Shown one piece after another: positions 12,742-28,600 of a DNA stretch of 57,589 bases (the first letter of the stretch is position 1; every line of letters begins with the position of its first letter). The stretch comes from Oscillospiraceae bacterium (GTDB taxonomy: Bacteria > Bacillota > Clostridia > Oscillospirales > CAG-272): NCBI GenBank assembly GCA_015064065.1, contig SVSY01000002.1, positions 1-57,589 of the forward strand. The letters are read 5' to 3'. A model generated the notes under the pieces. It ran no database searches, was not told where the DNA came from, and saw only the letters and a list, made by a program, of their open reading frames with translations. Made by a program: the position numbers and the translations under genes.

Positions 12742-14547
12742 TTGATATTCGGCAAACATATAAACCGATACTACCTTAAGTATTCGCCGCTTCTCATTTT
12801 GGGCCTGATAGCTCTCGTTATAGTCGACTATATGCAGCTCGTTATCCCCGAGCTTTACAGAATGGTCATCAACGGAGTCAAAACAGGTGCGGTCACGGTA
12901 GATGGAGTCAGCCATACGTTCGACATCGTTTTTCTTCTTGATAAGATATGCCTGCCTCTCCTTTTCGTCATACTCGGTATGGTCTTCGGACGCTTTTTGT
13001 GGCGAGTATGCTTCTTCAGCGCGGGAATAAAGCTCGAATCCGATCTTCGCAGCCGTATGTTCGATCGCTGCAAGGACCTTTCCCAGCAATATTATCAGGT
13101 CAATAAGGTCGGAAACCTTATGTCGCTTTTCACCAACGACCTTGATACCATTCAGGAGTGCTTCGGTTGGGGAATTATGATGTTCTTCGACGCGGCGATC
13201 CTCGGCGTTCTGTCATTTATAAAAATGTTCAAAATGGACGCAACTCTTACCCTGCTCTCTATGATACCTATGGTGCTTCTGCTCGTTTGCTCAATAATCG
13301 TGGGCGAATATATGGGCAAGAAGTGGGAGGAAAGACAGGCGGCTTTCTCCGAGCTCTCGGATTTCTCGCAGGAGACCTTTGCGGGAATAGCGGTCATCAA
13401 GGCCTTCGTAAAGGAGACCCACGAGCTGCTTCAATTCAAGAAGATAAGCAAGAAAAACGAGGATATCAACGTAAGCTACACCAAGCTCTCTATGCTTCTC
13501 CACGTTTCTCTCACCCTCTTTATTGAGTCGATAACCTGCGTTATACTCGGCTACGGCGGATATATCGTATGGAAGGGCGGCTTTGACGCGGGACAGCTCG
13601 TTGAGTTCATCGGCTATTTCACAACTATAATCTGGCCCGTTATGGCGGTCTCCGAGCTTATCGGTATGCACGCACAGGGCAAGGCATCGCTCAAGAGAAT
13701 AAGCGAGCTCCTTAACGCAAAGTCCGATGTTGTAGATAACGGCGACGTCGTTCCCTGCTCTGACATCAAGGGAGACATAGAGTTCAAAGGTCTTTCCTTT
13801 ACTTACCCCGACGGAAGCGACGAGGTCCTCACCGACGTATCCTTCAAAATAAACGCAGGAGAGAACGTTGGCATTATCGGACGTACGGGCTCGGGTAAAA
13901 CTACGATAGTAGACCTTATACTCAGGACCTACAACGTGCCCGACGGAACGCTGTTTATCGACGGAAAGGATATAAATACCATTCCGATCAAGGACGTTCG
14001 CGCCGCGGCAGCATACGTTCCGCAGGATAATTTCCTCTTCTCCGATACTATTGAAAACAACATCGCCTTTGCGACCGACAACGCCGAGCACGACGGTGTC
14101 GTAAATGCGGCAAAGCTTGCAGACGTTCACGAAAACATCGAAGGCTTCTTGGAAAAATACCAAAGCGTTCTCGGAGAACGCGGAGTTACCGTCTCGGGCG
14201 GTCAGAAGCAAAGAATTTCTATTGCTCGTGCGCTTATGAAGAATGCATCGATACTTATTCTCGACGACTCGGTCTCCGCGGTCGACGTAAATACCGAAAA
14301 GGCGATACTTTCTAATCTTCGCGACACGCGCAAGGGCAAGACCACCATGCTGATAGCGCACAGAATAAGCACGGTTGAAAATATGGACAAGATAATCTAC
14401 GTCGAAGGCGGCAGAGTGAGTGCCGTCGGCACTCACTCAGAGCTTTTGCGCGATTGCGAGAGCTATCGAAATCTCGTTGAGCTCCAGCGTCTTGACGATG
14501 CGGGCGAGGACGCCGTCGTAGAGGAAGGGGGTATTCAAAATGCATGA
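12742..14547 (+). CDS. ABC exporter half-transporter (TMD-NBD fusion), subunit 1 of a heterodimeric pair
   Basis: TTG start 7 nt after AAGGAGG. It has six predicted TM helices and an NBD with Walker A GRTGSGKTT, signature VSGGQKQR and Walker B ILILDD. Confidence 0.85.
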   Translation: MIFGKHINRYYLKYSPLLILGLIALVIVDYMQLVIPELYRMVINGVKTGAVTVDGVSHTFDIVFLLDKICLPLLFVILGMVFGRFLWRVCFFSAGIKLESDLRSRMFDRCKDLSQQYYQVNKVGNLMSLFTNDLDTIQECFGWGIMMFFDAAILGVLSFIKMFKMDATLTLLSMIPMVLLLVCSIIVGEYMGKKWEERQAAFSELSDFSQETFAGIAVIKAFVKETHELLQFKKISKKNEDINVSYTKLSMLLHVSLTLFIESITCVILGYGGYIVWKGGFDAGQLVEFIGYFTTIIWPVMAVSELIGMHAQGKASLKRISELLNAKSDVVDNGDVVPCSDIKGDIEFKGLSFTYPDGSDEVLTDVSFKINAGENVGIIGRTGSGKTTIVDLILRTYNVPDGTLFIDGKDINTIPIKDVRAAAAYVPQDNFLFSDTIENNIAFATDNAEHDGVVNAAKLADVHENIEGFLEKYQSVLGERGVTVSGGQKQRISIARALMKNASILILDDSVSAVDVNTEKAILSNLRDTRKGKTTMLIAHRISTVENMDKIIYVEGGRVSAVGTHSELLRDCESYRNLVELQRLDDAGEDAVVEEGGIQNA

Positions 14548-16432
14548 GTTATATCCTCTTTTGATACTCGGAGCTATAATCGGAGTATTTACCGCTATAT
14601 TCGTATTCGCATACGTCTTTATGAAGGACAAAAAGGAAGCTATAGGCTTTGACCGAAACATGAAGGACAGCGAGATAATAAAGCGTCTGCTCGTGTACGC
14701 AAAGCCCTACACCAAGAGCTTTATCGTAGTCTTCCTGCTTATGCTCTTCTCCATCGCACACGAGATAATCTCCCCGCTCATTATGGGTCAGGTCATCGAA
14801 ACGATAGGGGCGGCAGACGGTTTTGAGCTATCCTATCTTATCTCGGCAATAATACTTTATGCCGTTATACTTATCGTATCTCTGATTTGTACCTATCTGC
14901 AGTCGATAATACTGCAAAAGACAGGTCAGCGCATAGTTTCCAATATGCGTGAGGACCTCTACGAGCACATTCAGAGCCTCTCTCACAATCAGCTCAACAA
15001 AATACCCGTCGGCACGCTCGTAACGCGTGTGACGAACGATACGAACGCGATATCCATTACCTTTACGAACATAATCGTAAATCTTCTCAAGAATTTCTTC
15101 ATAATCATCGGCGTGCTTGCGGCTATGCTTCTGCTCAATTATATGCTCACGCTGATGGTGCTCTGCTTCGTTCCCTTCGTTGTGATATTTGCATTCATCT
15201 TCCGCAAATTCTCGCGAAAAGCACACCGCAAGGTAAAAACGGGAACGACCGATATCAACATCTTCCTTTCCGAAAACCTTTCGGGTATGAAGATAATTCA
15301 GATATTCAACCGCGAGGAGCGCAAAAAGCAGGAATTTGAGAGCAAGAACCAAACGCTCAAAAAAGCAAAGCTCGGTCAGATGTTTGTTTTCGGTATATTC
15401 AGACCTATGGTATATATGCTCTATATCTCTTCGGTGCTCTGTCTGTTCTATCTCGGAGCGCGCGGATATATCGACGGCTGGGTATTCTTGGGTCAGACGG
15501 TGACCAGCGGCGTTATCGTTTCCTTCTACTCCTATATCAACAAGTTCTTCAACCCGATACAAAACCTTGCCGAGCAGTTCAACAGACTTCAGGCTTCGTT
15601 TGCTTCGGCTGAGAAGATATTTACTATCTTCGATATAGTTCCCGAGGTAGTAGACGAGCCCGACGCTATCGAACTCGAGCAGGTTGAGGGCAATATCGAA
15701 TTCCGCAACGTATGGTTCTCCTACCTGCCTGACGAGTGGGTACTTCGCGACGTTTCCTTTAAGGTAAACGCGGGCGACACGGTAGCCTTCGTCGGTGCAA
15801 CGGGCAGCGGAAAGACAACTATCCTCTCACTTATATGCCGAAATTACGACATACAGAAGGGTCAGATACTCATTGACGGAATAGACATCAAGAAGATAAA
15901 GATCTCCTCTCTGCGCCGCCATTTCGGTCAGATGCTTCAGGACGTATTTCTCTTCTCGGGCACTATCCGCTCCAACATAATCCTCGGGCTTGAGGGAGTT
16001 GACGACGCCGAGATAAACAAGGCTTGCGAGTACGTCAACGCGGATAAGTTTATCAATAAGCTTCCCGACAAGCTCGACGAGGTAGTCCGTGAGCGCGGCA
16101 ACAACTTCTCGGCAGGTCAGCGTCAGCTTCTCTCCTTTGCGAGAACGATAATCCACAAACCCTCGGTAATGATACTTGACGAAGCTACCGCAAATATCGA
16201 TACCGAGACCGAGGTGCTAATACAGGATTCGCTCGAAAAGATGATGAACATAGGCACTATGCTTATGGTCGCACACAGACTCTCGACCATTCAGCACGCA
16301 GACAATATCATCGTGCTCTCGCACGGCGAGATAGTCGAGCAGGGCAACCACGCAGAGCTTCTCAAGCAAAAGGGCAGATATTACAAGCTCTATACGCTTC
16401 AGTATCACAAAGAAAAGCTCCAAGGAAAATAA
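14540..16432 (+). CDS. ABC exporter half-transporter (TMD-NBD fusion), subunit 2
   Basis: It overlaps the upstream gene by 8 nt. Walker A is GATGSGKTT, the signature is FSAGQRQL and Walker B is VMILDEAT. Confidence 0.85.
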   Translation: MHELYPLLILGAIIGVFTAIFVFAYVFMKDKKEAIGFDRNMKDSEIIKRLLVYAKPYTKSFIVVFLLMLFSIAHEIISPLIMGQVIETIGAADGFELSYLISAIILYAVILIVSLICTYLQSIILQKTGQRIVSNMREDLYEHIQSLSHNQLNKIPVGTLVTRVTNDTNAISITFTNIIVNLLKNFFIIIGVLAAMLLLNYMLTLMVLCFVPFVVIFAFIFRKFSRKAHRKVKTGTTDINIFLSENLSGMKIIQIFNREERKKQEFESKNQTLKKAKLGQMFVFGIFRPMVYMLYISSVLCLFYLGARGYIDGWVFLGQTVTSGVIVSFYSYINKFFNPIQNLAEQFNRLQASFASAEKIFTIFDIVPEVVDEPDAIELEQVEGNIEFRNVWFSYLPDEWVLRDVSFKVNAGDTVAFVGATGSGKTTILSLICRNYDIQKGQILIDGIDIKKIKISSLRRHFGQMLQDVFLFSGTIRSNIILGLEGVDDAEINKACEYVNADKFINKLPDKLDEVVRERGNNFSAGQRQLLSFARTIIHKPSVMILDEATANIDTETEVLIQDSLEKMMNIGTMLMVAHRLSTIQHADNIIVLSHGEIVEQGNHAELLKQKGRYYKLYTLQYHKEKLQGK

Positions 16433-16548
16433 TCGGGACTGCTTCATTCAAGTACAGAAGTCGTGTTCTTCGTTTTCTCGGCGTACGCGGCTGAAAACAC
16501 ACATAAAAATGAATTTTGAGAGCCTCGTCTCGAAAAATTCTACAAAAA

Positions 16549-16590
16549 AACCGCTCTTGTTATCGGATTTGATAGCAAAAGCGGTTTTCT
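16549..16590. terminator. bidirectional terminator between the convergent ABC exporter (+) and the 16641-32065 operon (-)
   Basis: A roughly 14-bp stem ccgctcttgttatc/gatagcaaaagcgg with loop ggattt, an A-run upstream and a T-rich run downstream. Confidence 0.6.
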
Positions 16591-16640
16591 CTTTTGTTTT
16601 ATTTTTGTGTGTTTTTGCGCTGAATGAAACAGCCCCTTTT

Positions 16641-18659
16641 TTATAGATCGTCGTAATATATGACCGCCAAATGTCCCTTGACCATCTCTATCTGGTAATT
16701 GTGCGTCATATCTCTTCCAAGATTATCGGTTATCTGACAGTAGGTTATGAAATTATCTACCGTGTATCCGTCCTCAAGACCCTCAACACACTCTATAACA
16801 CCGTTGCACCTTGCCGTGAGCGTATGCCCGCCGAGCAATGCACCTTTTGTAATATTGACCTCGTCACTTCTATATACAGCATCCGCCTTGTAATTAAATA
16901 TCTTATCCACGGCGCTAACACTCAGTACCTTAGGAGTAACGGTAAGAACTGCATGATCGGGGTTTGCGGACGCATCGGATCCGACGAATACAACGGGATA
17001 ATCCACTCCGTCTATCTGCGCGCGGCACGTATGAGCTAACTCGTTGAGCTGCCCGAGCGTATAAGTGCCCGAATCGGTAAGCGATACGTTTATATGGCTG
17101 TAATCGATAGTAACCTTTCCTTCCGCTATCGGCACGCATACGTCTTTGAGATCAACGCTTATCTTCTTGCCGCTGTAAGTCTTCGTCGTAGGGTATACCA
17201 TCACGCAAAGCTGAGGGCCCTGCTTGACGTTAAGCGTTCCGTATTGATATCCCTGTATAGTAAAATTATTAGTGACGACCTCGCCGTTAGACAGGGTTAT
17301 ACGCGTGAGGGATTCATCGCAGGTGTTTTTCGTACGTCCTATCATCGTTATCGTCGGATTTCCCGATATTGTCACATTATGATTTACCGCAAGGTCAGTA
17401 TTCGAGATTATCCACGCCTCTTTGTTTGAGAGCGGTCTGCCGTCCCATTCCTTTTCGGAAGATCCCGTGGCTATCGTTATCGGGCACTTATTCACGGTTA
17501 TCTCGCCGAAATCGACTTTTATGTCATAATTGTCACTTACTTCATTTCCATAAGAATTTACGACCGAAAAGTACATTTCATTTTTGTACGGTGCTCCGTC
17601 CTCAGAGACCGTTTTTACAGATCTGTAACTCAATATCTTCAAGGAGTCTCCATAAACCAGATCGCCCTTGAGAATTTTGTAATTTGGGAAGGTACGCAGC
17701 TTTCCGTCGTAGGTAAACTCTGCACTTTCGGTCTCTATATATAACGGTCTCGGTGTTATTTCCAAGGTAGCGCTTATCACTTCGATATTATACAAAAAAG
17801 TAACGTTTTCCCGCATAGAGTCATATATAGTGACGTTAGCCGGCGCAAGCTCAAGCTTTTGCACGTCAACTATCGAAGAAGAATTCTGTTCTATGAGCAG
17901 AATATCTCCGTCTACCAAAGTTCCCTGCGTGATATCGTACAGACTTCTGCTATCAAGAGGCAGACCGTCGTATACTTTTTTTGCACTCTTCATTTCTATT
18001 CGAAGGATCTCGCTTCTGCGTGATATATTCACCTGCTTCGGCAGAGCATCTATATCGTAAGCGCCGGTCACGTACTCACCCTCGGAATTGACGATAGCAA
18101 GATTCATTATGTTCGGGGTCGCCACGGCAGTAGCTATACTTTCGTGCATACTGCCAAGCAGGTCCGTTCTGTGATAAGAATCCACGGAAAACCGTACGCC
18201 TTTTACGGTATCTCCCTTAGCAAGTCCCTCAAAAAGAGGTGTTGGCTTATCGCCGTAGACTAAGGTATTCTCCTTGCAGACTATAGAGAGCTTTCCTCTC
18301 TTTATGACAAACGCGAATTCGTCACCGTAATTTCGGTTTCCGAAGCTATCCAGCGCAAATGCTCTTGCCCTGTACTCTCCCGGCATATTCGGTTGCTCAT
18401 CGGTCCAGCTCGAATTATCGGCAGAATATTCAAATCTCACGCGGCCGAAAAAGGCTTTTCCGCCAAAGTCAAGCTTTTGTCCGTATTCAAATACGTCGTG
18501 TGTTTCGACCGAAATTATCGTCCCCTTCATAACGGTGATAGCGGTAACGACCGCCGCGAGAGCCGCCGTACACAGAAGGATAGGCACAATGTGTCGCCAA
18601 AGAACTGCTAATACCGAAGCGACTTTTTTTATTTTATTTTCATAGGCTTCGTATTGCAT
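16641..18659 (-). CDS. single-pass membrane protein with about seven MBG-like (YDG/YGD-motif, Ig-like) repeats; last gene of the operon
   Basis: An N-terminal signal-anchor (IVPILLCTAALAAVVTAITV) is followed by repeated ~85-aa modules, each carrying a Y-[DG]-[GD] motif (LVYGDKP, KVYDGLPL, FTYDGKL, KEWDGRPL, KTYSGKK) and a later NY.I motif. An AAGGAGGG RBS lies 13 nt after the upstream stop. Confidence 0.6.
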   Translation of the reverse strand: MQYEAYENKIKKVASVLAVLWRHIVPILLCTAALAAVVTAITVMKGTIISVETHDVFEYGQKLDFGGKAFFGRVRFEYSADNSSWTDEQPNMPGEYRARAFALDSFGNRNYGDEFAFVIKRGKLSIVCKENTLVYGDKPTPLFEGLAKGDTVKGVRFSVDSYHRTDLLGSMHESIATAVATPNIMNLAIVNSEGEYVTGAYDIDALPKQVNISRRSEILRIEMKSAKKVYDGLPLDSRSLYDITQGTLVDGDILLIEQNSSSIVDVQKLELAPANVTIYDSMRENVTFLYNIEVISATLEITPRPLYIETESAEFTYDGKLRTFPNYKILKGDLVYGDSLKILSYRSVKTVSEDGAPYKNEMYFSVVNSYGNEVSDNYDIKVDFGEITVNKCPITIATGSSEKEWDGRPLSNKEAWIISNTDLAVNHNVTISGNPTITMIGRTKNTCDESLTRITLSNGEVVTNNFTIQGYQYGTLNVKQGPQLCVMVYPTTKTYSGKKISVDLKDVCVPIAEGKVTIDYSHINVSLTDSGTYTLGQLNELAHTCRAQIDGVDYPVVFVGSDASANPDHAVLTVTPKVLSVSAVDKIFNYKADAVYRSDEVNITKGALLGGHTLTARCNGVIECVEGLEDGYTVDNFITYCQITDNLGRDMTHNYQIEMVKGHLAVIYYDDL

Positions 18660-18672
18660 ATGCCCTCCTTTT

Positions 18673-21198
18673 TTACGGTGTTATTCTCAACTCTCCAGGA
18701 ATATAGCTTATAGAATAATTATGCTCTACCGAAATTCCACTTCTGTTCTTTATGGTTATTTCCGACACCCAAGACTCAGAGCAACCTATCTCGGTCTGCG
18801 AGCCGCCGAAGACTATAGAGCTTATGGTGTGACCGTCTGCAAGACTTCCGCCGGTCAGCTTATAGGAGGATGCCTTTATCTCACTGTCACTGAAAGGAGC
18901 GCTGACGTCGTCTATAGTTATTTCTATAGGACGCGGATATATCTTCATCTTTGCATATTCCTTGACCACCTTATACTCTGCGGTAACGTCCTTACCTTTT
19001 GCATCAAGCAGCTGTATCTCGTAGCGTATAGGCTCTTCTCCCACGGATACTAACGACTCGGTGCTCAGAAGCACGAGCTTAAGCCCCATTCTTTCAAATC
19101 CGCTCGTGGTACATCTTACACTGTTTATCTTGTGCTCAATACCGTCGAAAACAAACTCATACGTATCGCTTCCGTCGGGAGCAAAATTATTTACCGAAAT
19201 GACGTCGCGGTATATCTGGACCGTTCCCGTTCGCTGTGAAAATTCGAAGTTCTCCGTAACGTCCTCTCCGTGCGGATCGTATATCTTATAATCGACTATG
19301 CTTACCGAGTGCTTACCGTACTCGTAGGGCACCTCAGAAAATACGGGCTCGAAACGGTATCCTTCCGCGGCGTAGCTTTCAAATCCTCTGTAGGTGATCT
19401 TAGGAATTGCATTTCCATACTTTACGCTCGCGTTATTCACGGTTATATTGACAACGTCACTGTGCACTTCCGATCTGCTTCCGGTAACTTCGACCATCAT
19501 CCAGCCTATTCCGTCGAGATATACCTCTACCCACGCGTGTCGCATAGCGGGAGTTATCGCGGCTCTCATACCGCTAAGCGTAGAAACCGCAAACCCTTCA
19601 GTATATCTTGCGGGAATACCCATCGCTCTGTAGAGCGCGGTAGCCGCGGTAGCATAATGTCTGCATACTCCGCGCTTATATTCTGACAGAAATGCGACCG
19701 CTATATCCCCTTCCTCTTCGAGCGCAGGGTCAAAATCCAAGTCGTAATACGCGCTGTTCTTGATAAATTCCGCTACTCTGTATATCGTAGCACGGTCATT
19801 TCCGTAAAAGCCCTTTTGCTCTATTACGCTCTTCATATATGCAAGCGTATCCTCGGGGATGTAGGTATAGTTTTCGTAAACGTACGGACGGTAACCGCGC
19901 TCAAAATCCGACATCAACTCCCCCTCTTTCCTCGCTTCCACCTCCAAGTTTTCGGGAAGCATAAGCACTTCAACTTCATATTCCCTTAAGGACGAGCTAT
20001 AAAAAACGTCACTTGTTTGATCGTATTCCTGCGGATCACCCCTTAACGCCATATAGTACGGTAAGCCAAATCCATTATAGAGCCACGATACTTTCACCTT
20101 GTTTTTGAAGTCATCTGCATTCGCAAGGAACTGTGTCGTACCGTTTATTGCAGTACCCATAAGATAGTCGGCTGAACGTCCAAAAAAGGTTTTATCGTAT
20201 CTCTGAGCCTCTGCCCACGAATTACCCAAATAATCTCCAAAGCTTTGTTGCTTCAGATATATCTTTCCTCCCTTTGAGGACGTAACGTACGCAAGAGGTT
20301 GATCGTCCGAGTAAGAATCGGATTCGACCTTAAGCGTTCCCTCGCTTCTTATCACGTTGTAGTACTCATCTACCGACTTACCCGTAACTTCATCTACTAT
20401 CCGAACGTAATCGATGGTATTGGGAGACGAGCCTATGCCCTCCTGCCTTCCCGATATCTTGACGTCGTGTATCCTATGTCCCTCCAAAAGCACCCAATCG
20501 TCATATCCGTATTCATTGCACACAGCTACGTTGGGATATTGCGTGGTATACGAATAGGATTGTACCGTAAGATTGATCTTCGAGACCACGAGCAGTCCGT
20601 ATTCATTCTCGAAATCGTATTTGTAGCTAACGTCATTTCCCATAAGGTCGATGATCTTTACCGAGCAGGTGTTAAATGACGTTCCTATGGCTGTTTGCGA
20701 ACCCGTGACAACGGCACGAACGCGATCTCCGTTCATCAGCGCTTCGGGATTTGTAAGCGTACAGTTGTCACTCATAAGAGGACTTCCGTCGTATTCCTTG
20801 ACGGCTCCCTCGGTCTTGAATTTCAACGTTATCGGTTTTATTTCAAGGATACCGTGCTCTATAACTACGTTGTAATCGGCAGTAACGTCCGCTCCCATCT
20901 CGTCAATAATGGTAACGTAAAGGCGGTTTTCGCTTCTGCCGACACCCTCTTGAGATCCCGTAACGTTTACCTTCGCTTTGTGTCCCTCCTTGAGCTTACC
21001 GCTAAGCAACGAATAGCCGTTATCGGACAGTGTGCTTCCGTCATACACTATCCTTGCGCTATTGCTTCTAAACACAAGCGTTGGTTTTTCAGCAGACAGT
21101 GCGCCACTCAGGCAAAAGGAAATGATCGCAACGAGCATCAGCACGGCGCTTACTGTCAATATACAAATCAGTGTCAAAAATTTTGATTTTCTGAACAT
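18673..21198 (-). CDS. membrane-anchored transglutaminase-like (cysteine protease fold) protein flanked by MBG-like repeats
   Basis: An N-terminal TM (LTLICILTVSAVLMLVAIISFCL), three MBG-like repeats (IVYDGSTL, KEYDGSPL ...), a transglutaminase core GVCRHYATAATALYRAMGIPARYTEGF...HAWVEVYLDGIGWMMVEVTG (Cys near nt 19663, His/Asp near nt 19500-19545), then three more repeats. Confidence 0.75.
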   Translation of the reverse strand: MFRKSKFLTLICILTVSAVLMLVAIISFCLSGALSAEKPTLVFRSNSARIVYDGSTLSDNGYSLLSGKLKEGHKAKVNVTGSQEGVGRSENRLYVTIIDEMGADVTADYNVVIEHGILEIKPITLKFKTEGAVKEYDGSPLMSDNCTLTNPEALMNGDRVRAVVTGSQTAIGTSFNTCSVKIIDLMGNDVSYKYDFENEYGLLVVSKINLTVQSYSYTTQYPNVAVCNEYGYDDWVLLEGHRIHDVKISGRQEGIGSSPNTIDYVRIVDEVTGKSVDEYYNVIRSEGTLKVESDSYSDDQPLAYVTSSKGGKIYLKQQSFGDYLGNSWAEAQRYDKTFFGRSADYLMGTAINGTTQFLANADDFKNKVKVSWLYNGFGLPYYMALRGDPQEYDQTSDVFYSSSLREYEVEVLMLPENLEVEARKEGELMSDFERGYRPYVYENYTYIPEDTLAYMKSVIEQKGFYGNDRATIYRVAEFIKNSAYYDLDFDPALEEEGDIAVAFLSEYKRGVCRHYATAATALYRAMGIPARYTEGFAVSTLSGMRAAITPAMRHAWVEVYLDGIGWMMVEVTGSRSEVHSDVVNITVNNASVKYGNAIPKITYRGFESYAAEGYRFEPVFSEVPYEYGKHSVSIVDYKIYDPHGEDVTENFEFSQRTGTVQIYRDVISVNNFAPDGSDTYEFVFDGIEHKINSVRCTTSGFERMGLKLVLLSTESLVSVGEEPIRYEIQLLDAKGKDVTAEYKVVKEYAKMKIYPRPIEITIDDVSAPFSDSEIKASSYKLTGGSLADGHTISSIVFGGSQTEIGCSESWVSEITIKNRSGISVEHNYSISYIPGELRITP

Positions 21199-21228
21199 AA
21201 TTCCAAGCTTCTTTTCCGTTAAAGTTTA

Positions 21229-22356
21229 TTTTTAAGCATTTCTCATTATTCTGTGTATATGGTCCTTGCATATCGGCATAGCGTCCGCGCCAAAAAGCTC
21301 TTCCATATACGAGATAAGCTCCTCTGCACTGTTTCTGAAATATATCGGATTTTGCGCTTCAAGCTTTCTTATGACCTTCTTGGACAGTATATCGTCAAGC
21401 GCGGCAAGCTCTTCTCCTCCACACGCTATATACACCGGTATATACGTCCTTATCTGCTTCATTATTCGGTTTCCGAAGGTTACGTGGTAATTCTGTGCAA
21501 GATATCTGTCAAAGCTTTCAAGCCTCTTTTGATTTCTTCTGCTTACTCCGTATTCCTTTATCGCGTTCTCTACCATCTTCTCAAACTGCTCCGCCGATAC
21601 GTGCAGCTTCTCGGTCCTCGGTGCTGCGAACCTTTCGCTCTTTCTGTCAAGATCGAGCACCATCGCTCTGTCGTATACCTTATCGGATATCGCAAAGGTA
21701 GAGTCGTCGTTGTTTGCCGTTCCTATAAACCACATATTTACGGGCAGCTTTATTCTGCCGTCTATAAGCTGTACGGGGTCGCTCTCCCATTTGTCCGATA
21801 CTACGTCAAGATATCTCTCGTTCGGGTCGGGAAGCTCTAGCAACGACAGAAATTCCGCAAAATAATACTCCACTCTCGCAATATTCATCTCGTCGAGTAT
21901 CGTTACGTACATATCCTTGCTGTAATTTGCCTCGTACATCTTCTCAAGCAACAGCGTTTCGTTAAATCTCTTCGTAAATTCGTTATAATATCCTATCAGG
22001 TCGCTTCTTTCCTTCCATACCGGCTGTACGGGTATTACCACCGACGCATTGTCCAAAAATACTCCGAATGCGTGCGCGAGCGAGGTCTTTCCCGTTCCAG
22101 ACATTCCCTGCAATATAAGCATCCTCGATACGCCCATACTTGCTATAAATCTTCTTATATCCTCTATCTCATAGTACAGCTTCAGCTCGCTCGCCGCATA
22201 ATTCCGAAAGCTTTCGCACATATATTCAAGGCTTACGACGCCCTCGTATCTCTTCGCTCCGTACTTCTCTCTGTTTCTGTCTATCTCCGACAGCATACAA
22301 AATCTCTCGCCCGTCTCCTCTTGCTTTGTCTCCTTCGTTCTCGCACTGTCTGAGGC
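21229..22356 (-). repeat. 1128-bp direct repeat, copy A (3' 1122 nt of McrB-like gene 1 plus stop-proximal bases)
   Basis: Base-by-base comparison with 24361-25488 (offset 3132 nt) shows only three differences, at 21283, 21289 and 22264. Confidence 0.95.
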
Positions 22357-22641
22357 ATCGGAATGGGCAATAATTATATCTTCCTGCTCTCCGTCTTTTT
22401 TGCGACGCATCACAAGAAAAGATATAAGCAATACAACGAGCAATACCGTTATGAGCGCAACAAGTCCGACTATGATACCCGCTATATCCTTTCGGATACC
22501 GCTTTCGTCAAATATGCCGACCCTTACGACCATTTTAGACACTACTGCCCAAACGAGCATTGCCGAAGCGACTGCTATAAGAAGAAGCAAAAGCTTGATA
22601 CCTTTATTCAATTTTTTTCTTTCGCGTCTACCCTTTTTCAT
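21232..22641 (-). CDS. membrane-anchored McrB-family AAA+ NTPase, copy 1
   Basis: The N-terminal 95 aa contain a basic stretch (KKGRRERKK) and two TM helices. These are followed by Walker A LILQGMSGTGKTS (nt 22081-22110), Walker B VTILDEMN, and the McrB-type FIGTANNDDS...DRAMVLDL segment. The last 374 aa are identical to copy 2. Confidence 0.7.
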   Translation of the reverse strand: MKKGRRERKKLNKGIKLLLLLIAVASAMLVWAVVSKMVVRVGIFDESGIRKDIAGIIVGLVALITVLLVVLLISFLVMRRKKDGEQEDIIIAHSDASDSARTKETKQEETGERFCMLSEIDRNREKYGAKRYEGVVSLEYMCESFRNYAASELKLYYEIEDIRRFIASMGVSRMLILQGMSGTGKTSLAHAFGVFLDNASVVIPVQPVWKERSDLIGYYNEFTKRFNETLLLEKMYEANYSKDMYVTILDEMNIARVEYYFAEFLSLLELPDPNERYLDVVSDKWESDPVQLIDGRIKLPVNMWFIGTANNDDSTFAISDKVYDRAMVLDLDRKSERFAAPRTEKLHVSAEQFEKMVENAIKEYGVSRRNQKRLESFDRYLAQNYHVTFGNRIMKQIRTYIPVYIACGGEELAALDDILSKKVIRKLEAQNPIYFRNSAEELISYMEELFGADAMPICKDHIHRIMRNA

Positions 22642-22671
22642 AGCTTTCGTGACCCTTTGATATAATTGATA

Positions 22672-24342
22672 TTATTGCTTGCCTGCTTTGTTTATACGCT
22701 TGATATTCTTTGGAGAAAGTATTCTCTTTCTGATCTTTCTTTTGGTAATTCCCCATTGCTTTTCATAAAAGCTCACAAACGCCTCGTACTCACGCTCAAG
22801 ATCGCTAAAGCTTTCCCTGTCGCTGTAGTCGTCTCCTGCGCTCATCTCGCCGTGCTCAGCCTTGATAGCCTTTATACGCGCCTCAAGTAACAGATTTTTT
22901 TCTTCGAGCGCCCGAACTCCGCTGATATATTCCTCATACTCCGCACGCTTTTCGTCGGTAATGCGCTCCATATGCTCTATCTGGCGGTGATAGTTGTCGC
23001 GTTGCTCACTCATTTGGAGATTTATAGCCGCTATCTGCTCGTTGTGCCTTTCAACAAGACTTGCTATCTTCTCGTCGCAGTCCTTCTTAAAGCCCGCTAC
23101 GTACGCGAATCGCTTTTCTGCCGTATCCGCAAGCTGCACGTCAAGCTCTTCTATCCTTTCGTTAAGTCGCCCGATAGTTTCCTTGAGGTCGTTCTCGTTT
23201 TTCTTAAGAGAATCTATCTTGGAGTACAGCGGCTCTATCTTGGAGTTTTCGCTTTCGAGCATCTTAACGTGCTTCTCAAGCTCAAGAATATACTCGTCCG
23301 CAGAAAGCTCTGAGCGAAGCACCTTTTTTTTCACAAGCTCAAGCTGTTGTCTGTGACTTTCCAGCTCCGCCTGCTTTTTTCTCTGCTCGGCAAGCTCGTA
23401 TTCTCTCTTGAGCGACTCACTTATTCCAAGTCCGTGCTCGTAAGCGATAAAAGCAAGCACCGCTATGATCTCGGCACTTTCAGCACCAACGTCATTCGTC
23501 AGCGGAGATATTTTTTTCTCTCGCTCCTCGACCGTGTATCCGTCTCCCTCGTAGGATATCAAAAAATCATACAGCGCAACTGCACCCTTGAAGTTCTTGT
23601 CCATCTTCAGCACGTTCGTTTTGGTTATAGGAGGCTTTATCATCGCCACCTTTGAAACGCTCTCCATAAGCGGAGTGGAAAGAAAGCTCAAGATCGCGTT
23701 GAGTATCGCGGATATTCTCTCTATGATATCCTTCGACTCGTTGTTCTCGCGAAGATATCTGTCATCCTCCCGTTTTTCGTGAAGATCAACGGTATATCTT
23801 ATCTCTCTTTTGGCATAGAGGACACTGCCGCTCAGCTTCATAGCTCCGTCATACTGCGATGCAAGCTTTTGTATGTTCGTATATCTGAGCGTTACGAAAT
23901 CGCGCAGATAGCACAAAAGCATATACAGAAAGCGATTTTCATATACGTTATAATCGTTAAGACGCTCCAACGTGTAAAGTCCGTCGGGAACTAAGTTCTC
24001 GTCCTCCTTTGGATCGCGCGAAATAAGATTGCTGTGCCTTGCAAGGTGCTCTACCGAATCTCTCGAAACGTTTTTGACCTTTTCTATCGGCACTACCTCT
24101 CCCGAGGAGCGTATAAACTGTCTGTCTTCCTTTATCGCCTTCTCTATATGAACGAGTCCCTCTTCAATGGCATCTACCCAATCCTCGTTTATCTTACATA
24201 TCGGGCGTTTTACGACGATACTGTCTGCTCCGCACGCCAATGCATCGGCTACTGTCTTTGTAAAAGCTCTGCATTCAGCGTTCGAATTTATTTGCTTGCG
24301 GTATTCCGACAAGGCTCGGTAGTATATATCTAACTGACCCAT
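22672..24342 (-). CDS. McrC/DUF2357-like N-terminal domain fused to a ~200-aa coiled coil; no recognisable nuclease
   Basis: 556 aa. The N-terminal ~300 aa contain LVPDGLYTLERLNDYNVYENRFLYMLL, which resembles the '..tpENRF..' segment of McrC-like/DUF2357 partners of McrB ATPases. Residues ~310-520 are heptad-rich and charged (ELAEQRKKQAELESHRQQLELVKKK...). I found no D...(D/E)xK motif and no P-loop. Confidence 0.45.
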   Translation of the reverse strand: MGQLDIYYRALSEYRKQINSNAECRAFTKTVADALACGADSIVVKRPICKINEDWVDAIEEGLVHIEKAIKEDRQFIRSSGEVVPIEKVKNVSRDSVEHLARHSNLISRDPKEDENLVPDGLYTLERLNDYNVYENRFLYMLLCYLRDFVTLRYTNIQKLASQYDGAMKLSGSVLYAKREIRYTVDLHEKREDDRYLRENNESKDIIERISAILNAILSFLSTPLMESVSKVAMIKPPITKTNVLKMDKNFKGAVALYDFLISYEGDGYTVEEREKKISPLTNDVGAESAEIIAVLAFIAYEHGLGISESLKREYELAEQRKKQAELESHRQQLELVKKKVLRSELSADEYILELEKHVKMLESENSKIEPLYSKIDSLKKNENDLKETIGRLNERIEELDVQLADTAEKRFAYVAGFKKDCDEKIASLVERHNEQIAAINLQMSEQRDNYHRQIEHMERITDEKRAEYEEYISGVRALEEKNLLLEARIKAIKAEHGEMSAGDDYSDRESFSDLEREYEAFVSFYEKQWGITKRKIRKRILSPKNIKRINKAGKQ

Positions 24343-24360
24343 ACCGTATCTTCCTTTAAG

Positions 24361-25488
24361 TTTTTAAGCATTTCTCATTATTCTGTGTATATGGTCCTTG
24401 CATATCGGCATAGCATCCGCACCAAAAAGCTCTTCCATATACGAGATAAGCTCCTCTGCACTGTTTCTGAAATATATCGGATTTTGCGCTTCAAGCTTTC
24501 TTATGACCTTCTTGGACAGTATATCGTCAAGCGCGGCAAGCTCTTCTCCTCCACACGCTATATACACCGGTATATACGTCCTTATCTGCTTCATTATTCG
24601 GTTTCCGAAGGTTACGTGGTAATTCTGTGCAAGATATCTGTCAAAGCTTTCAAGCCTCTTTTGATTTCTTCTGCTTACTCCGTATTCCTTTATCGCGTTC
24701 TCTACCATCTTCTCAAACTGCTCCGCCGATACGTGCAGCTTCTCGGTCCTCGGTGCTGCGAACCTTTCGCTCTTTCTGTCAAGATCGAGCACCATCGCTC
24801 TGTCGTATACCTTATCGGATATCGCAAAGGTAGAGTCGTCGTTGTTTGCCGTTCCTATAAACCACATATTTACGGGCAGCTTTATTCTGCCGTCTATAAG
24901 CTGTACGGGGTCGCTCTCCCATTTGTCCGATACTACGTCAAGATATCTCTCGTTCGGGTCGGGAAGCTCTAGCAACGACAGAAATTCCGCAAAATAATAC
25001 TCCACTCTCGCAATATTCATCTCGTCGAGTATCGTTACGTACATATCCTTGCTGTAATTTGCCTCGTACATCTTCTCAAGCAACAGCGTTTCGTTAAATC
25101 TCTTCGTAAATTCGTTATAATATCCTATCAGGTCGCTTCTTTCCTTCCATACCGGCTGTACGGGTATTACCACCGACGCATTGTCCAAAAATACTCCGAA
25201 TGCGTGCGCGAGCGAGGTCTTTCCCGTTCCAGACATTCCCTGCAATATAAGCATCCTCGATACGCCCATACTTGCTATAAATCTTCTTATATCCTCTATC
25301 TCATAGTACAGCTTCAGCTCGCTCGCCGCATAATTCCGAAAGCTTTCGCACATATATTCAAGGCTTACGACGCCCTCGTATCTCTTCGCTCCGTATTTCT
25401 CTCTGTTTCTGTCTATCTCCGACAGCATACAAAATCTCTCGCCCGTCTCCTCTTGCTTTGTCTCCTTCGTTCTCGCACTGTCTGAGGC
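24361..25488 (-). repeat. 1128-bp direct repeat, copy B (3' part of McrB-like gene 2)
   Basis: See copy A. The differing bases are at 24415, 24421 and 25396. Confidence 0.95.
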
Positions 25489-25689
25489 GTTCTCAACGAT
25501 GATCTTCTGCTCGCGCTTGAGTTCCTTCGGTTCACCGAGCGCAAGAGAAAAAACGAGTATTGCAATGGCTGCAACTATAACGAGCAGATAAACGAGTATC
25601 GCCGTTCCCGAAAGCAGAAAATCAAGTGAAAACTTTGCCAAAGCACCCTTCAAAGCAATAGCCGTCACAGGTCCGTTAAAATTTACCAT
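24364..25689 (-). CDS. membrane-anchored McrB-family AAA+ NTPase, copy 2
   Basis: It has a different 67-aa N-terminus with one long hydrophobic segment (LDFLLSGTAILVYLLVIVAAIAILVFSLAL). From SDSARTKE... to the stop it is identical in protein to copy 1 (Walker A at nt 25213-25242). Its ATG shares 1 nt with the upstream TGA (cTGATGg). Confidence 0.7.
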   Translation of the reverse strand: MVNFNGPVTAIALKGALAKFSLDFLLSGTAILVYLLVIVAAIAILVFSLALGEPKELKREQKIIVENASDSARTKETKQEETGERFCMLSEIDRNREKYGAKRYEGVVSLEYMCESFRNYAASELKLYYEIEDIRRFIASMGVSRMLILQGMSGTGKTSLAHAFGVFLDNASVVIPVQPVWKERSDLIGYYNEFTKRFNETLLLEKMYEANYSKDMYVTILDEMNIARVEYYFAEFLSLLELPDPNERYLDVVSDKWESDPVQLIDGRIKLPVNMWFIGTANNDDSTFAISDKVYDRAMVLDLDRKSERFAAPRTEKLHVSAEQFEKMVENAIKEYGVSRRNQKRLESFDRYLAQNYHVTFGNRIMKQIRTYIPVYIACGGEELAALDDILSKKVIRKLEAQNPIYFRNSAEELISYMEELFGADAMPICKDHIHRIMRNA

Positions 25690-28600
25690 CAGTTCTTCTC
25701 CTTAGGATTTTTTACCGTTTTGTTCAACTCGGCAGTCCTTACGGCTCTGCGTGAAGCTTCAGCACCGCTATCTCCGAATATCTTTTCGATCTCGTCACCG
25801 AGTCCCGCGTTAACGTCTTTGGTAAGCACGAGCACCGACGGCAAGATCCTTGCCGCCACAGCTCTGTCAAGAGACTCGTCGGCATCACCGCTGCAAGCGA
25901 CGAACGCAGCCACATATCGCTCCATACTCATCCACTGCTTATTACCTATTGAATACTCGACAAGATCCCCAACGAATGCACAAAGCCTGTCCACCTTCTT
26001 CCAAAGCTCCTCGCCGATCTCGCTTTGTCCGACTTCTCTCTCGCTCATAAATTCAAGCTGATAATACGTCAGCTTATGAACTGCGGTAGGTTCTGCCGCA
26101 GGGGTCACGGCAGTTACTCTGAGCTCTGTTACAGCCGCCGCCTCGGCAACGTCCAACGGAATATCCGCAATAGCGGTATTAGCACTCAAGCCACCGATAA
26201 ACCAGATATTTTCAGAAAATCTGTGCTTTCCTTCAACAGCCGAGATAACGCTGTCGGAATAAGGACTTTTTGCGTATTTTACAATATCGCCAAAGCAATT
26301 TTTCATAGCTTCGCCGTCGAGCTCGGCAAAGGCACAGATATGAAGCTTTTCACGTGCAGCTCTCGCCCCGTCAACTATTCGAAGCGTCTCTGTAGCAACG
26401 GGCTGACCGTTTGCGTCCTTCGTATTGAAGATGCGCGAAGGCGCGGTATAGCTTCCGTCAACTCTATCCAAAGACGCACTGCACTCAAAATATTGTGACA
26501 GCGCGGTTATAAGTCTTTCAAGTTCGCCTTTTTCGAGCCCCTGAATAAGCACGATACGTGACGATGCCATAGCCGAAAGCAGACCGTTTACGCTTACTCG
26601 GTCAAGCTTACAGCCGTGCTCTCTCAAAAAGATCTCAAGCTCTGCTGACACAGTCTCGAACGTAAGCTCCTTATCGACGTGAGCAAAATACTCGTCGTTG
26701 CTGCGCTTTTCCGTTACCGTGACCTCATCTTCGTCGGGCGTATGATCGGCTCCGAACTCGTCTGCAAATATCTTATCCGCATCAAAGCTTTCGAGCTTGG
26801 TCGCATCCTCGAACCATTTTTCATTAGCCTTTGCGGCAGCTTCCTTCTCTTTTTCGCCGATTCTTTTTCTGTCTATCGCCTCAAGAACGAAAAACGCGAT
26901 CGCCACACCGATCATTCCAACGGTAATAACGTTAAGAAATGCAGACACGGTATTTGTTGAAACGCAATATATCTGCAATAATACGGCAAGCAGCAAAAGT
27001 GCCGCTCCGCAAGCAATATTTTTGATAGCCTTTTTCATAACGGGATATCTTGCCTCCAATGTATAATTCTCTGAGATAATGTTCGATTCAGATTGTAGAT
27101 AGCGTGAAAGCGGCTCGTGCGTCGGCGCGAGCACGGCATCCCCTGCTCTCAGCTTCGCACTAAGTCTTATGTCGCTCACCGAAGAGCCTACGTATACGTT
27201 ATATACTCCCTTTTCTGCGACGGCTTTTCCGCTTGCGACGTCAAATACCAACGGCACGGACAGCTTTAACGTTACGTTCTTTGATTGACCCGCCTCAAGA
27301 TATATCTTGTCGAATGCCACAAGCTCCTTCTTGGGACGCAGTGACGAGGACGACTCTATGCCGACGTAAAGCTGTACGACCTCCGCGGCAGCCATTCTTC
27401 CTATATTTTTGAGTGTAAAGGAGACGCTGTCCTCTCCGTTAACACTAAGCGAGGAATAGGCAAACTCGGAATATCCAACGCCGTGCCCAAAGGGATAACC
27501 GATATCCCACTCGGCAGTATCGTAGTATCTGTAGCCTATAAAGCGGCCTGCCTTCGCCCCCATATTCATATATCTCTGCTGCTTTGCAAGCGAGCTATCC
27601 GTGTTTCTGTAAAGCGAATTTGCAAGCTTTCCTGACGGACTGTAGACTCCGCAGACCGCGTCTGCAAGCGCCTCTGCAGAGCCGCGCACGTCGATAGGTG
27701 CGAGGATCAGTGCGCCAAGCTCGTCAAGCGTAGCAACGTCTACGGCATAGTTGCTTGACAGCACGGCAACGGTGTGCTTGGCACAGCTTTGTGCAAGCTT
27801 ACTTGCCAATATATCCTGATTTGCGGGAAGCGAAAGATTTTTAGAGCGAGTTATATACTTTTCGCGCTCCTTATCCGTGCCCGCAAAAAACAACGTAAGG
27901 TCAGCTCTTTTGGCAAGCGCGATAGCCTCTTGAGACAGTTCGGTGCTCGGAAGCTCCGAATCCTTCTCGTACCCCCGCGCAACTCCTATTACGTCAGCTC
28001 CTCTTTTTCGCAAGCTCGCACAAATGCGTTCGACCCAAGCGCTGTCGGATACCGCCGCATCGCCTATCAACGCTACGCTTGCGCTCTTTTGAATGGGAAG
28101 CAGACCGTTCGCATTTTTCAAGAGCACTATCGACTCTCTCGCCGCCTCGGGCGCAAGCTCGTTTACTTTTCGCTCCGCCTCCTGCTCGCCGGCGTATCTC
28201 GGCATAAGCTCCGAAAGGAATGCTATGGTGCGGTCTACTGCGGCATCAAGCATCTCGGGAGATATCGCGTTTCCGCATTCAATATCCTCCAAGAGCTCCT
28301 CGTCCCCCATCTCACCGCGATCAATGGCTTTCTTTATCTTCGTATATTTGTTGAGTGCCGCCTGAAGCGCATATCCCGAGCCTTTCAAGCAAATTATTCC
28401 TTGATTTATATACCGTACCGTATTTTCCGCATTCGCGTTACAGCAAAGTACGGCGACAGCCTCGCCAAGCTTTCCGCCGGCAGCCATTTTCATAAGATCT
28501 TGACTGCGTTCTCCGTATTCCCCCGCAAGCGTTTCTTCTTTTATACAAACGCCTACGTGGCGCTCGGAAAGTGCTTCTATATACGGTCTTGCGACGTACT

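Follow-up and report, generated by a model that had tools for sequence, protein, structure and literature searches.

What does a McrB ring do once it is bolted to a membrane? McrBC is the textbook restriction motor driven by nucleoside triphosphate (NTP) hydrolysis, and to our knowledge few cases exist in which it has left nucleic-acid work, beyond staphylococcal PcdA and animal Nav/CTTNBP2. The question is raised by a nine-gene operon in a 57,589-nt stretch of Oscillospiraceae bacterium DNA (GenBank assembly GCA_015064065.1, contig SVSY01000002.1, positions 1 to 57,589 of the forward strand), which is referred to here as the window. An earlier reading made from the letters and their translations, called here the sequence-only reading, had described 21232-26874, which is read here on the minus strand, as an McrBC-type motor in which transmembrane (TM) helices replace the DNA reader and a coiled coil replaces the nuclease. 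This interval covers genes G, F and E and the last ~390 amino acids of D, and the overall interpretation was supported by the analysis described below. The system probably remodels the envelope and does not cleave DNA. All coordinates are window positions, and all genes of the operon lie on the minus strand. The four central genes and the repeat that they contain are as follows.

29057..25689, minus strand: D, 1122 amino acids
25689..24364, minus strand: E, 441 amino acids
24342..22672, minus strand: F, 556 amino acids
22641..21232, minus strand: G, 469 amino acids
24361..25488, minus strand: direct repeat copy 2, the ATPase body of E, 1128 nt
21229..22356, minus strand: direct repeat copy 1, the ATPase body of G, 1128 nt

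One McrB-like NTPase body occurs twice, as E and as G, on two different predicted membrane anchors. Both carry LILQGMSGTGKTS, VTILDEMN and FIGTANNDDS...DRAMVLDL, and Pfam AAA_5 is called in both (E ~3e-6); these motifs, and those that the sequence-only reading had quoted for D, are all present on the minus strand where it had placed them. E has a short N-terminus, one hydrophobic TM helix (residues 31-49), an acidic linker of ~35 amino acids and a McrB-like AAA+ domain with intact motifs. G has an N-terminus rich in Lys and Arg and two TM helices (residues 17-35 and 55-73), followed by an AAA+ body identical to that of E; across the two proteins, the acidic linker between TM and AAA+ measures ~35-40 residues. 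TM segments were predicted from hydropathy (Kyte-Doolittle, 19-residue window). By this measure, the claim that TM helices precede every AAA+ domain was borne out, as the segments in E, G and D are strongly hydrophobic (19-residue means of 2.5-3.3) and their number is kept in orthologues, with one TM in the upstream ATPase copy (18/18) and two in the downstream copy (17/17). Since these 1-TM and 2-TM anchors are consistently kept across loci, the duplication is old and the anchors are orthologous. Together with the C-terminus of D, there are three McrB-type domains, of which two are identical and active-looking and one is dead, and all are predicted to be tethered at the inner face of the membrane.

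The two repeat copies differ at 3 of 1128 positions, and all three differences are synonymous; thus, E and G agree in every one of their last 374 residues. The sequence-only reading had counted two intact paralogues, and while the motifs are indeed intact, they belong not to separate paralogues but to one 374-residue sequence that is present twice. The identity ends sharply just upstream of the linker preceding 'GERFCML', and the N-termini are unrelated in sequence. Near-identity of the two copies within one genome is the rule: the 3' 1.0-1.2 kb of both ATPase genes is at least 98.4% identical in ~24/26 related loci from GTDB and metagenomes (21/23 scored locus entries plus L027, Anaerocaecibacter muris and the window). 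The two bodies are 99.7% identical in L027 and 98.5% identical, with 16 differences, in the A. muris isolate. Partial escape is seen in three exceptions, L041 (93.9%), L084 (87.8% over 607 nt) and L069 (83%). Between genomes, the ATPase body of the window has only 59-76% protein identity to its orthologues. As judged from these alignments, the pattern is that of gene conversion and points to repeated homogenisation of the E/G catalytic bodies, and the concerted evolution would be confined to a single domain while the anchors stay distinct.

Near-identical E/G bodies (98.4-100% in DNA) were seen in L001, L003, L012, L017-L019, L023, L027-L030, L050 and L053, as well as in L062, L068, L071, L073, L076, L077, L081 and L083. 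Two antisense open reading frames of 195 amino acids, at 21253-21840 and 24385-24972 on the plus strand, are near-identical because they lie inside the two repeat copies, and nothing indicates that they are genes.

Near-identical repeats of 1.1 kb are a classic source of mis-assembly, and many related contigs break exactly at the repeat. Both observations would fit an assembly artefact or a decaying locus, in which the duplicated ATPase is a mis-assembled single gene and D is a pseudogene fusion. We consider this extremely improbable, as more than 25 independent assemblies show two copies laid out in this way, with N-termini that differ (1-TM and 2-TM); among them is the isolate genome, sequenced at 444x coverage, with 16 real differences between its copies. 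In addition, no reading frame is broken, and 23 orthologues have a full-length D. An artefact as the origin of the E/G identity was thus rejected on the isolate genome and the conserved distinct N-termini, and the homogenisation is taken as real because the isolate genome shows the near-identity too. The repeat has a practical consequence. Many, if not most, of the GTDB contigs that bear F span a mere 2-3.5 kb, and pieces of both ATPase genes flank F on them (L005-L011, L014-L016, L020-L022 and ~30 further loci). The unique gene F sits between the two copies of the 1128-nt repeat, which explains why the locus is fragmented in many short-read assemblies of metagenome-assembled genomes (MAGs).

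To which AAA+ family does this body belong? E and G carry Walker A GMSGTGKTS and Walker B ILDEMN, and among E orthologues the P-loop is present in 24/24 and the Walker B DE in 23/24. In the place of sensor 1, N213, N214, D215 and D216 are invariant in the 24 E orthologues, giving an Nx(x)D signature, and FIGTANNDDSTFAISD of E aligns ungapped to IIGLMNTADRSLAVVD of E. coli McrB, which contains NTAD. NNDD also fits 'NxD followed by D', the pattern that Bell et al. 2024 (PMC11090510) give for the NxD clade, and the ungapped NTAD alignment favours the NxxD length. Searches against 177,635 PDB sequences matched McrB as the sole family, weakly in each case, with the single sequence of E (E 3.5e-4), the E/G family profile (E 4.5e-5) and the D C-terminal profile (E 4.4e-4); among these PDB sequences, no MoxR/RavA, dynein or other AAA_5 chain was matched by these queries, even at E ≤ 1. 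The best NCBIfam match of the ATPase is McrB. The candidate-defence profile PDC-M26A of PADLOC also matches it (E 1e-43), and 'PDC-M26' is not mentioned in the literature searched. Pfam found no DNA-binding domain at the N-termini of E and G, which hold TM helices and the short acidic linker.

Structure comparison was less selective. With the AlphaFold2 (AF2) model of E (mean pLDDT 74.5), Foldseek returned RavA first (2.2e-5), then McrB 6HZ4 (7.2e-5), MCM and T. gammatolerans McrB, with dynein also among the matches. RavA, McrB, MCM and dynein belong to the H2-insert clade of large ring AAA+ ATPases. The model-based comparison would place E in the correct AAA+ clade without separating McrB from MoxR. 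The sequence-only reading had proposed McrB-clade membership, and this is favoured by sequence, where McrB alone is matched, but not by structure, where Foldseek does not set McrB and MoxR apart. Taken together, the E/G ATPase appears to be of McrB type by sequence, though weakly.

The top rank of RavA also bears on a different assignment, in which E and G are MoxR-like chaperone ATPases (cf. RavA-ViaA, NorQ-NorD and MoxR-DUF58-TgpA) that mature the transglutaminase-like membrane protein encoded in the operon, and the DUF2357 match of F is spurious. MoxR operons frequently contain TM transglutaminase-like proteins, which would suit this assignment as well. We find it quite unlikely. No MoxR or RavA sequence of PDB was matched, whereas McrB was matched by three independent queries; NNDD stands in the place of sensor 1, as in McrB; and no VWA, DUF58 or AAA_3 domain was matched by Pfam in the operon proteins, which leaves the operon without the VWA/DUF58 partner of such systems.

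The same question turns on F, which lies between the two ATPase genes. From an alignment of 27 orthologues, F was divided into three parts.

23428..24342, minus strand: F residues 1-305, very conserved domain of the DUF2357 (McrC N-terminal) type, Pfam PF09823
22828..23427, minus strand: F residues 306-505, charged helical, coiled-coil-like stalk of variable length, by composition and matches
22672..22827, minus strand: F residues 506-556, conserved basic C-terminal tail with the stop codon, from the 27-orthologue alignment

The DUF2357 match of F is marginal (25.9 bits against a gathering cut-off of 23.3) and is obtained at E<0.01 with 9/27 orthologues. The most conserved stretch is residues 74-150. 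In an AF2 model of residues 1-320, the pLDDT is 80, except for residues 75-129, which fall below 50; this segment may be one that would order only upon binding of a partner. With the model of the N-domain, in which 75-129 is poorly modelled, Foldseek found nothing in PDB (best E 0.17, no McrC) or in a viral library. A profile search with full-length F against PDB returned coiled-coil proteins only and was uninformative for the N-domain, and the best 150 matches listed in a search of representatives with the N-domain profile were close family members only. Further evidence came from locus L086 (828-9138, ENA ERZ11466757 NODE_3763), the closest relative found outside the operon. It encodes a DUF2357 protein of 633 amino acids to which the F N-domain is homologous (hhalign probability 99.4%, E 5.7e-22, 238 columns), and which itself matches DUF2357 over profile positions 79-231 of 251. 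The link of F to McrC would therefore draw on the DUF2357 match, which is weak as a stand-alone score, on the placement of F between McrB-like genes and on the homology to the L086 protein. With regard to the MoxR-like assignment, the marginal DUF2357 score and the lack of a structural match of F to McrC count in its favour, and the homology of the F N-domain to a second protein that independently matches DUF2357 counts against a spurious match.

The sequence-only reading had the McrC-like partner ending in a coiled coil. The stalk is there: residues 306-505 are 45% charged with one proline, show a heptad signal in residues 337-400, match solely coiled-coil proteins (SMC, apolipoprotein, keratin and similar) and differ in length among orthologues. 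The protein does not end there, however, as a conserved basic tail of ~50 residues follows, with the pattern F..LE.E.EAF..FY...W...K..IRK..L and invariant F512, L515, E516, W530, K534, I537, R538, K539 and L542. No nuclease was matched in F by Pfam, NCBIfam or PADLOC, and no nuclease-like fold is among the Foldseek matches of residues 1-320. Residues 306-556, a charged helix and a 50-residue tail, are too short for a C-terminal PD-(D/E)xK nuclease of the DUF524 type. A decayed PD-(D/E)xK fold in residues 160-305 was also considered and was rejected, with neither a structural match nor a conserved D...(D/E)xK pattern. For all nine proteins of the operon, Pfam, NCBIfam and PADLOC found no nuclease, HEPN, PLD or DNA-binding domain; a nuclease or other DNA-targeting fold in F or elsewhere in the operon would have spoken against the sequence-only reading.

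The third McrB-type domain is in D, which combines three parts.

27108..29057, minus strand: D residues 1-650, GH3-type module with a degenerate N-domain, GH3_C and an Fn3-like domain (Pfam, PDB 7ms2)
26883..27017, minus strand: D residues 681-725, TM hairpin (681-699 and 707-725; hydropathy 2.48 and 2.46)
25731..26687, minus strand: D residues ~791-1109, dead paralogue of the E/G McrB-like AAA+ domain (hhalign)

D carries SRIVLIQGLEKGELERL, KLHICAFAELDGEA, ENIWFIGGLSANTAI and IGNKQWMSMERYVAAFVACSG at the positions quoted earlier, and its colinearity with E, which had been proposed by eye, was confirmed by BLASTP (E 5e-10 over 274 amino acids) and by profile-profile comparison with the E family in hhalign (probability 99.9%, E 4.5e-31, 325 columns, 24 orthologues each). 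The lid motifs WKK.D.LE, IGNK.W, ACG, ALD and IFGED are common to D and E/G. The loss of catalytic motifs noted by the sequence-only reading extends to the family: a P-loop is present in 0/24 D orthologues, there is no DE at the position of the Walker B of E and no NNDD, and the Arg at the finger position of E (YDRAM) is absent in 23/24. The N-terminal 650 residues match the beta-glucosidase of PDB 7ms2 (E 1e-57), Pfam GH3_C (5e-26) and Fn3-like (3e-17). The 'SDW' nucleophile motif was not seen in the block at residues 180-262 across 23 orthologues, most of which read 'G.IC.L.GS'-like there; the HMMER alignment to 7ms2 skips residues 187-250, and the assignment of the nucleophile to this block is a reading by eye. 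D thus appears doubly dead from its motifs, with a motif-dead AAA+ domain and a GH3 module that has no nucleophile motif. D has no signal peptide, and four Lys/Arg residues precede the hairpin and five follow it; since the signal peptide is missing and Lys/Arg residues stand on both sides of the hairpin, both modules are predicted to be cytoplasmic. The GH3-like module is, by this prediction, a cytoplasmic pseudo-glycosidase that is fused through a TM hairpin to a pseudo-ATPase.

In which company does this motor work? The nine genes form a tightly packed minus-strand cluster (32065..16641) in the order gene 1 (CvpA-like), gene 2, gene 3, D, E, F, G, H and I. The remaining features of the operon and its downstream side are as follows.

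32148..32176, minus strand: sigma-70-like promoter match, TTGACA-17-TATACT, ~85 nt upstream of gene 1
30563..32065, minus strand: gene 1, 500 amino acids, N-terminal CvpA-like bundle of ~4 TM helices and a domain of ~330 amino acids to which no fold is assigned
29754..30530, minus strand: gene 2, 258 amino acids, a TM helix, a soluble domain and two further TM helices (hydropathy)
29121..29735, minus strand: gene 3, 204 amino acids, soluble N-terminal domain and C-terminal TM anchor (hydropathy)
18673..21198, minus strand: H, 841 amino acids, N-terminal signal-anchor, MBG/Ig-like repeats and a transglutaminase-like (papain-fold) core, predicted to be extracytoplasmic
16641..18659, minus strand: I, 672 amino acids, N-terminal signal-anchor and adhesin-like domain repeats, predicted to be extracytoplasmic (Pfam, hydropathy)
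12742-16432: ABC exporter gene pair just downstream of the operon, ordinary housekeeping context
10826-12583, plus strand: NFACT-family protein (RqcH-like) just downstream of the operon (NFACT_N, E 4e-131)

The promoter match (32176..32148) fits 11/12 consensus positions and is the best site within 16000-33000; it is a consensus match only, and the total of promoter-like sites in this interval is no higher than in shuffled sequence. Gene 1 matches Pfam Colicin_V under the gathering score (E 5e-5), its TM bundle comes from hydropathy, and an orthologue occupies the same position in 13/36 related loci (tabulated loci of at least 9 kb). Gene 2 is kept in related loci. H matches Transglut_core in Pfam (E 8e-21) and has one TM segment at residues 8-26; an H homologue lies 3' of the downstream ATPase gene in 33/36 tabulated loci, which is wherever the locus reaches that far. 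A large repeat protein homologous to I closes the cluster in related loci. The layout is that of genes that are co-transcription-compatible with membrane and surface proteins.

Two further observations concern these partners. The soluble domains of genes 2 and 3 are weakly similar (BLASTP E 8e-4, motif GKKYL) on different membrane anchors, a second instance in the operon of a single domain on two anchors. In the transglutaminase-like core of H, read from the sequence, the Cys (GVCRHYA) and His (HAWVEVY) are kept, and a Glu stands in the usual place of the Asp (GWMMVEVT).

The operon is widespread. F relatives were found in at least 216 GTDB species (Clostridia) and fall into over 2,000 clusters when grouped at 90% identity and into 1,440 when grouped at 50%. 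The D-E-F-G-H-I order is intact in every long locus that spans those genes (~35 loci), and shorter related loci retain the order of whichever genes are present. The loci are labelled Oscillospiraceae, Christensenellaceae/Christensenella, Candidatus Gallimonas, Lachnospiraceae, Clostridium and other Clostridia, with Anaerocaecibacter muris CLA-AA-M11 (Pumilibacteraceae) as a cultured carrier. Mean column identity is 75% for the ATPase body, 60% for F and 23% for the D C-terminus, and F orthologues are 44-74% identical to F of the window. H and I are 25-35% identical across loci and evolve far faster than the cytoplasmic motor. In one MAG, two F homologues that are 46% and 40% identical to F of the window are found on separate contigs (L005 and L054; JAZRGJ010000147.1 and JAZRGJ010000140.1), which would mean that this genome has two paralogous systems, unless the bin is contaminated.

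Fast-evolving extracellular proteins beside a conserved motor would fit an arms race at the cell surface, and this raises the alternative of a membrane-associated anti-phage defence in the style of CoCoPALM or Zorya. Surface proteins H and I or the TM anchors would sense phage, the ring and F would relay the signal, and a cryptic effector, acting for example by membrane damage or as a transglutaminase-like protease, would abort infection. The McrBC ancestry, PDC-M26A as the closest profile of the defence library (E 1e-43) and the resemblance of the closest outgroup, L086, to a CoCoPALM system also speak for it. The match to PDC-M26A is limited to the ATPase domain, however, and PADLOC leaves F and the other operon proteins unmatched; no effector nuclease, HEPN, TIR, pore or similar domain was recognised by Pfam, NCBIfam or PADLOC. 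The operon of the window is flanked by housekeeping genes, not by a defence island or mobile element; these encode ABC exporters, the NFACT-family protein, an acyl-CoA synthetase, a 2-oxoacid:ferredoxin oxidoreductase, zinc-uptake proteins (ZnuA, ABC-3) and SHMT. In addition, the nine-gene layout stays fixed in several families although the flanks differ, as would more often be expected of a cellular machine that is inherited vertically. A defence role therefore seems unlikely to us, although it deserves serious consideration.

We favour, at about even confidence, the explanation that E, F, G and D form the cytoplasmic, McrBC-derived motor of a conserved envelope operon of gut Clostridia, and that its ring works on envelope partners and not on DNA. 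In the mechanism that we propose, E and G would form a ring that lies flat against the inner face of the membrane, and D may be part of it as an inert spacer. The conserved, flexible segment of F at ~75-130 would enter the ring and, in the way that McrC acts on McrB, start NTP hydrolysis. The coiled coil of F would dimerise or reach a target. The work of the ring would remodel or assemble the membrane and surface partners (genes 1-3, H and I) instead of translocating and cutting DNA. Gene conversion would keep the E and G bodies identical, such that both anchored subunits fit the same ring and the same activator. That E, G and D share a ring, and what this ring puts out, we infer from the features above. 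A more elaborate form of the proposal is a housekeeping machine in which the McrBC-type motor transmits NTP-driven force across the membrane to surface proteins, with an obligately mixed ring of 1-TM, 2-TM and dead subunits, the pseudo-glycosidase as sensor and continuous gene conversion policing the compatibility of the two active subunits; this form is possible, and we hold it with clear reservation.

Several points weigh against the favoured explanation. Foldseek ranks RavA, a MoxR protein, above McrB for E. The link of F to McrC consists of a marginal Pfam score and gene neighbourhood, and the N-domain model has no structural match to McrC or any other PDB entry. An hhalign comparison of the F profile with E. 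coli McrC was negative (probability 0.1%); this was not weighed against the DUF2357 reading, because E. coli McrC belongs to another Pfam family. Membrane insertion of the TM segments is a hydropathy prediction, and in metagenome assemblies the near-identity of E and G may be slightly raised by assembler bubble-popping. Finally, the nearest families outside the operon are candidate defence systems (PDC-M26A and CoCoPALM-type), so that a defence role retains some probability.

The locus is a clean and widespread example, with at least 216 species and thousands of metagenomic variants, of a motor and its activator that are under strong constraint while all DNA-handling parts are absent. E and G are a rare bacterial instance of concerted evolution limited to one domain, and they raise the question of why two differently anchored ATPase copies stay identical through gene conversion. 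D raises the question of what use the cell makes of a dead AAA+ paralogue that is joined to a dead glycosidase. Experiments could be done in the cultured A. muris CLA-AA-M11. The near-identity of E and G with its concerted evolution, the pseudo-glycosidase in D, the nine-gene operon and the CoCoPALM precedent go beyond the sequence-only reading.

How does the system compare with those already known? Like canonical McrBC (E. coli; PDB 6HZ4, 6UT6 and 7VSR), it has an AAA+ core with Walker A, Walker B DExN and Nx(x)D, and it pairs the NTPase with a partner that bears an N-terminal domain of the McrC type. Unlike canonical McrBC, it has TM anchors instead of the N-terminal DNA-reading domain, a partner without a nuclease, three ATPase-type domains of which one is dead, and a context of envelope proteins instead of restriction-modification.

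The MoxR-adaptor systems (RavA-ViaA, NorQ-NorD and MoxR-DUF58-TgpA) share with it the AAA+ ring clade, a partner thought to enter the pore and a link to membrane complexes; in Foldseek, E matches RavA best. In contrast to those systems, the window's system has no MoxR sequence match and no VWA/DUF58 protein, and has the McrB signature and DUF2357 instead. We therefore regard the resemblance to MoxR-adaptor systems as one of function and not of family.

PcdA of Staphylococcus aureus is an McrB-family NTPase that was exapted to a cellular role (PMC10602043). PcdA and animal CTTNBP2/Nav are precedents for McrB-family NTPases outside restriction, with degenerate motifs as in D. PcdA keeps EVE reader domains and has neither an McrC-type partner nor a membrane anchor, whereas the active copies in the window keep both the motifs and the partner.

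CoCoNuT systems resemble the system of the window in that they derive from McrBC, have long coiled coils and include McrC homologues in which an active nuclease may be missing (PMC11090510). CoCoNuTs always occur with HEPN or other nucleases and have no TM anchors (PMC11090510), whereas no HEPN, PLD, Vsr or active PD-(D/E)xK was found in the operon of the window by Pfam, NCBIfam or PADLOC.

The closest published class is CoCoPALM, which is mentioned in passing beside CoCoNuT, named and deferred by the authors to later work (Bell et al. 2024, eLife 13:RP94800, PMC11090510). CoCoPALM systems comprise McrB-like GTPases fused to an FtsB-like TM segment and a coiled coil, with coiled-coil McrC homologues, also occur with signal-peptidase or pilus-assembly genes, and are placed in the NxD clade (PMC11090510). 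The comparison was made with this published description. Like CoCoPALM, the system of the window has a TM-anchored McrB-like NTPase and, in F, a coiled-coil DUF2357 partner that lacks a PD-(D/E)xK nuclease. Unlike CoCoPALM, E and G have no coiled coil between TM and ATPase, the ATPase is duplicated on two anchor types with concerted evolution, a dead paralogue fused to a dead GH3 module is added, and the partners are transglutaminase-like and MBG-repeat surface proteins; no signal-peptidase or pilin-like gene was found among the nine operon proteins by Pfam or NCBIfam, which is a further difference. The motif NNDD, itself ambiguous, has the NxxD length, against the NxD clade of CoCoPALM.

The ATPase of L086, P0121, is one of two proteins recovered through a homologue search with the D C-terminus; it has a TM segment, a coiled-coil-like stretch and a McrB-like domain, and is 42% identical to E (BLASTP 3e-110). 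Adjoining it is the DUF2357 coiled-coil protein, 30% identical to the N-domain of F, and the locus also encodes a SipW-like peptidase (NCBIfam E 3.6e-6), as well as two proteins that each have one hydrophobic segment, at the N-terminus. L086 agrees with what has been published on CoCoPALM. Next in this locus come EAL-domain proteins and a PNP_UDP_1 gene, which hints at a link to cyclic di-GMP signalling.

No published description of the nine-gene operon was found in the literature searched, and it appears that neither the arrangement of the nine genes, nor a D fusion with two dead modules, nor concerted evolution restricted to one domain of E and G has been described so far. Nuclease-less, TM-anchored, coiled-coil relatives of McrBC as such have already been named (CoCoPALM, PMC11090510), and the system of the window is a relative of this class.

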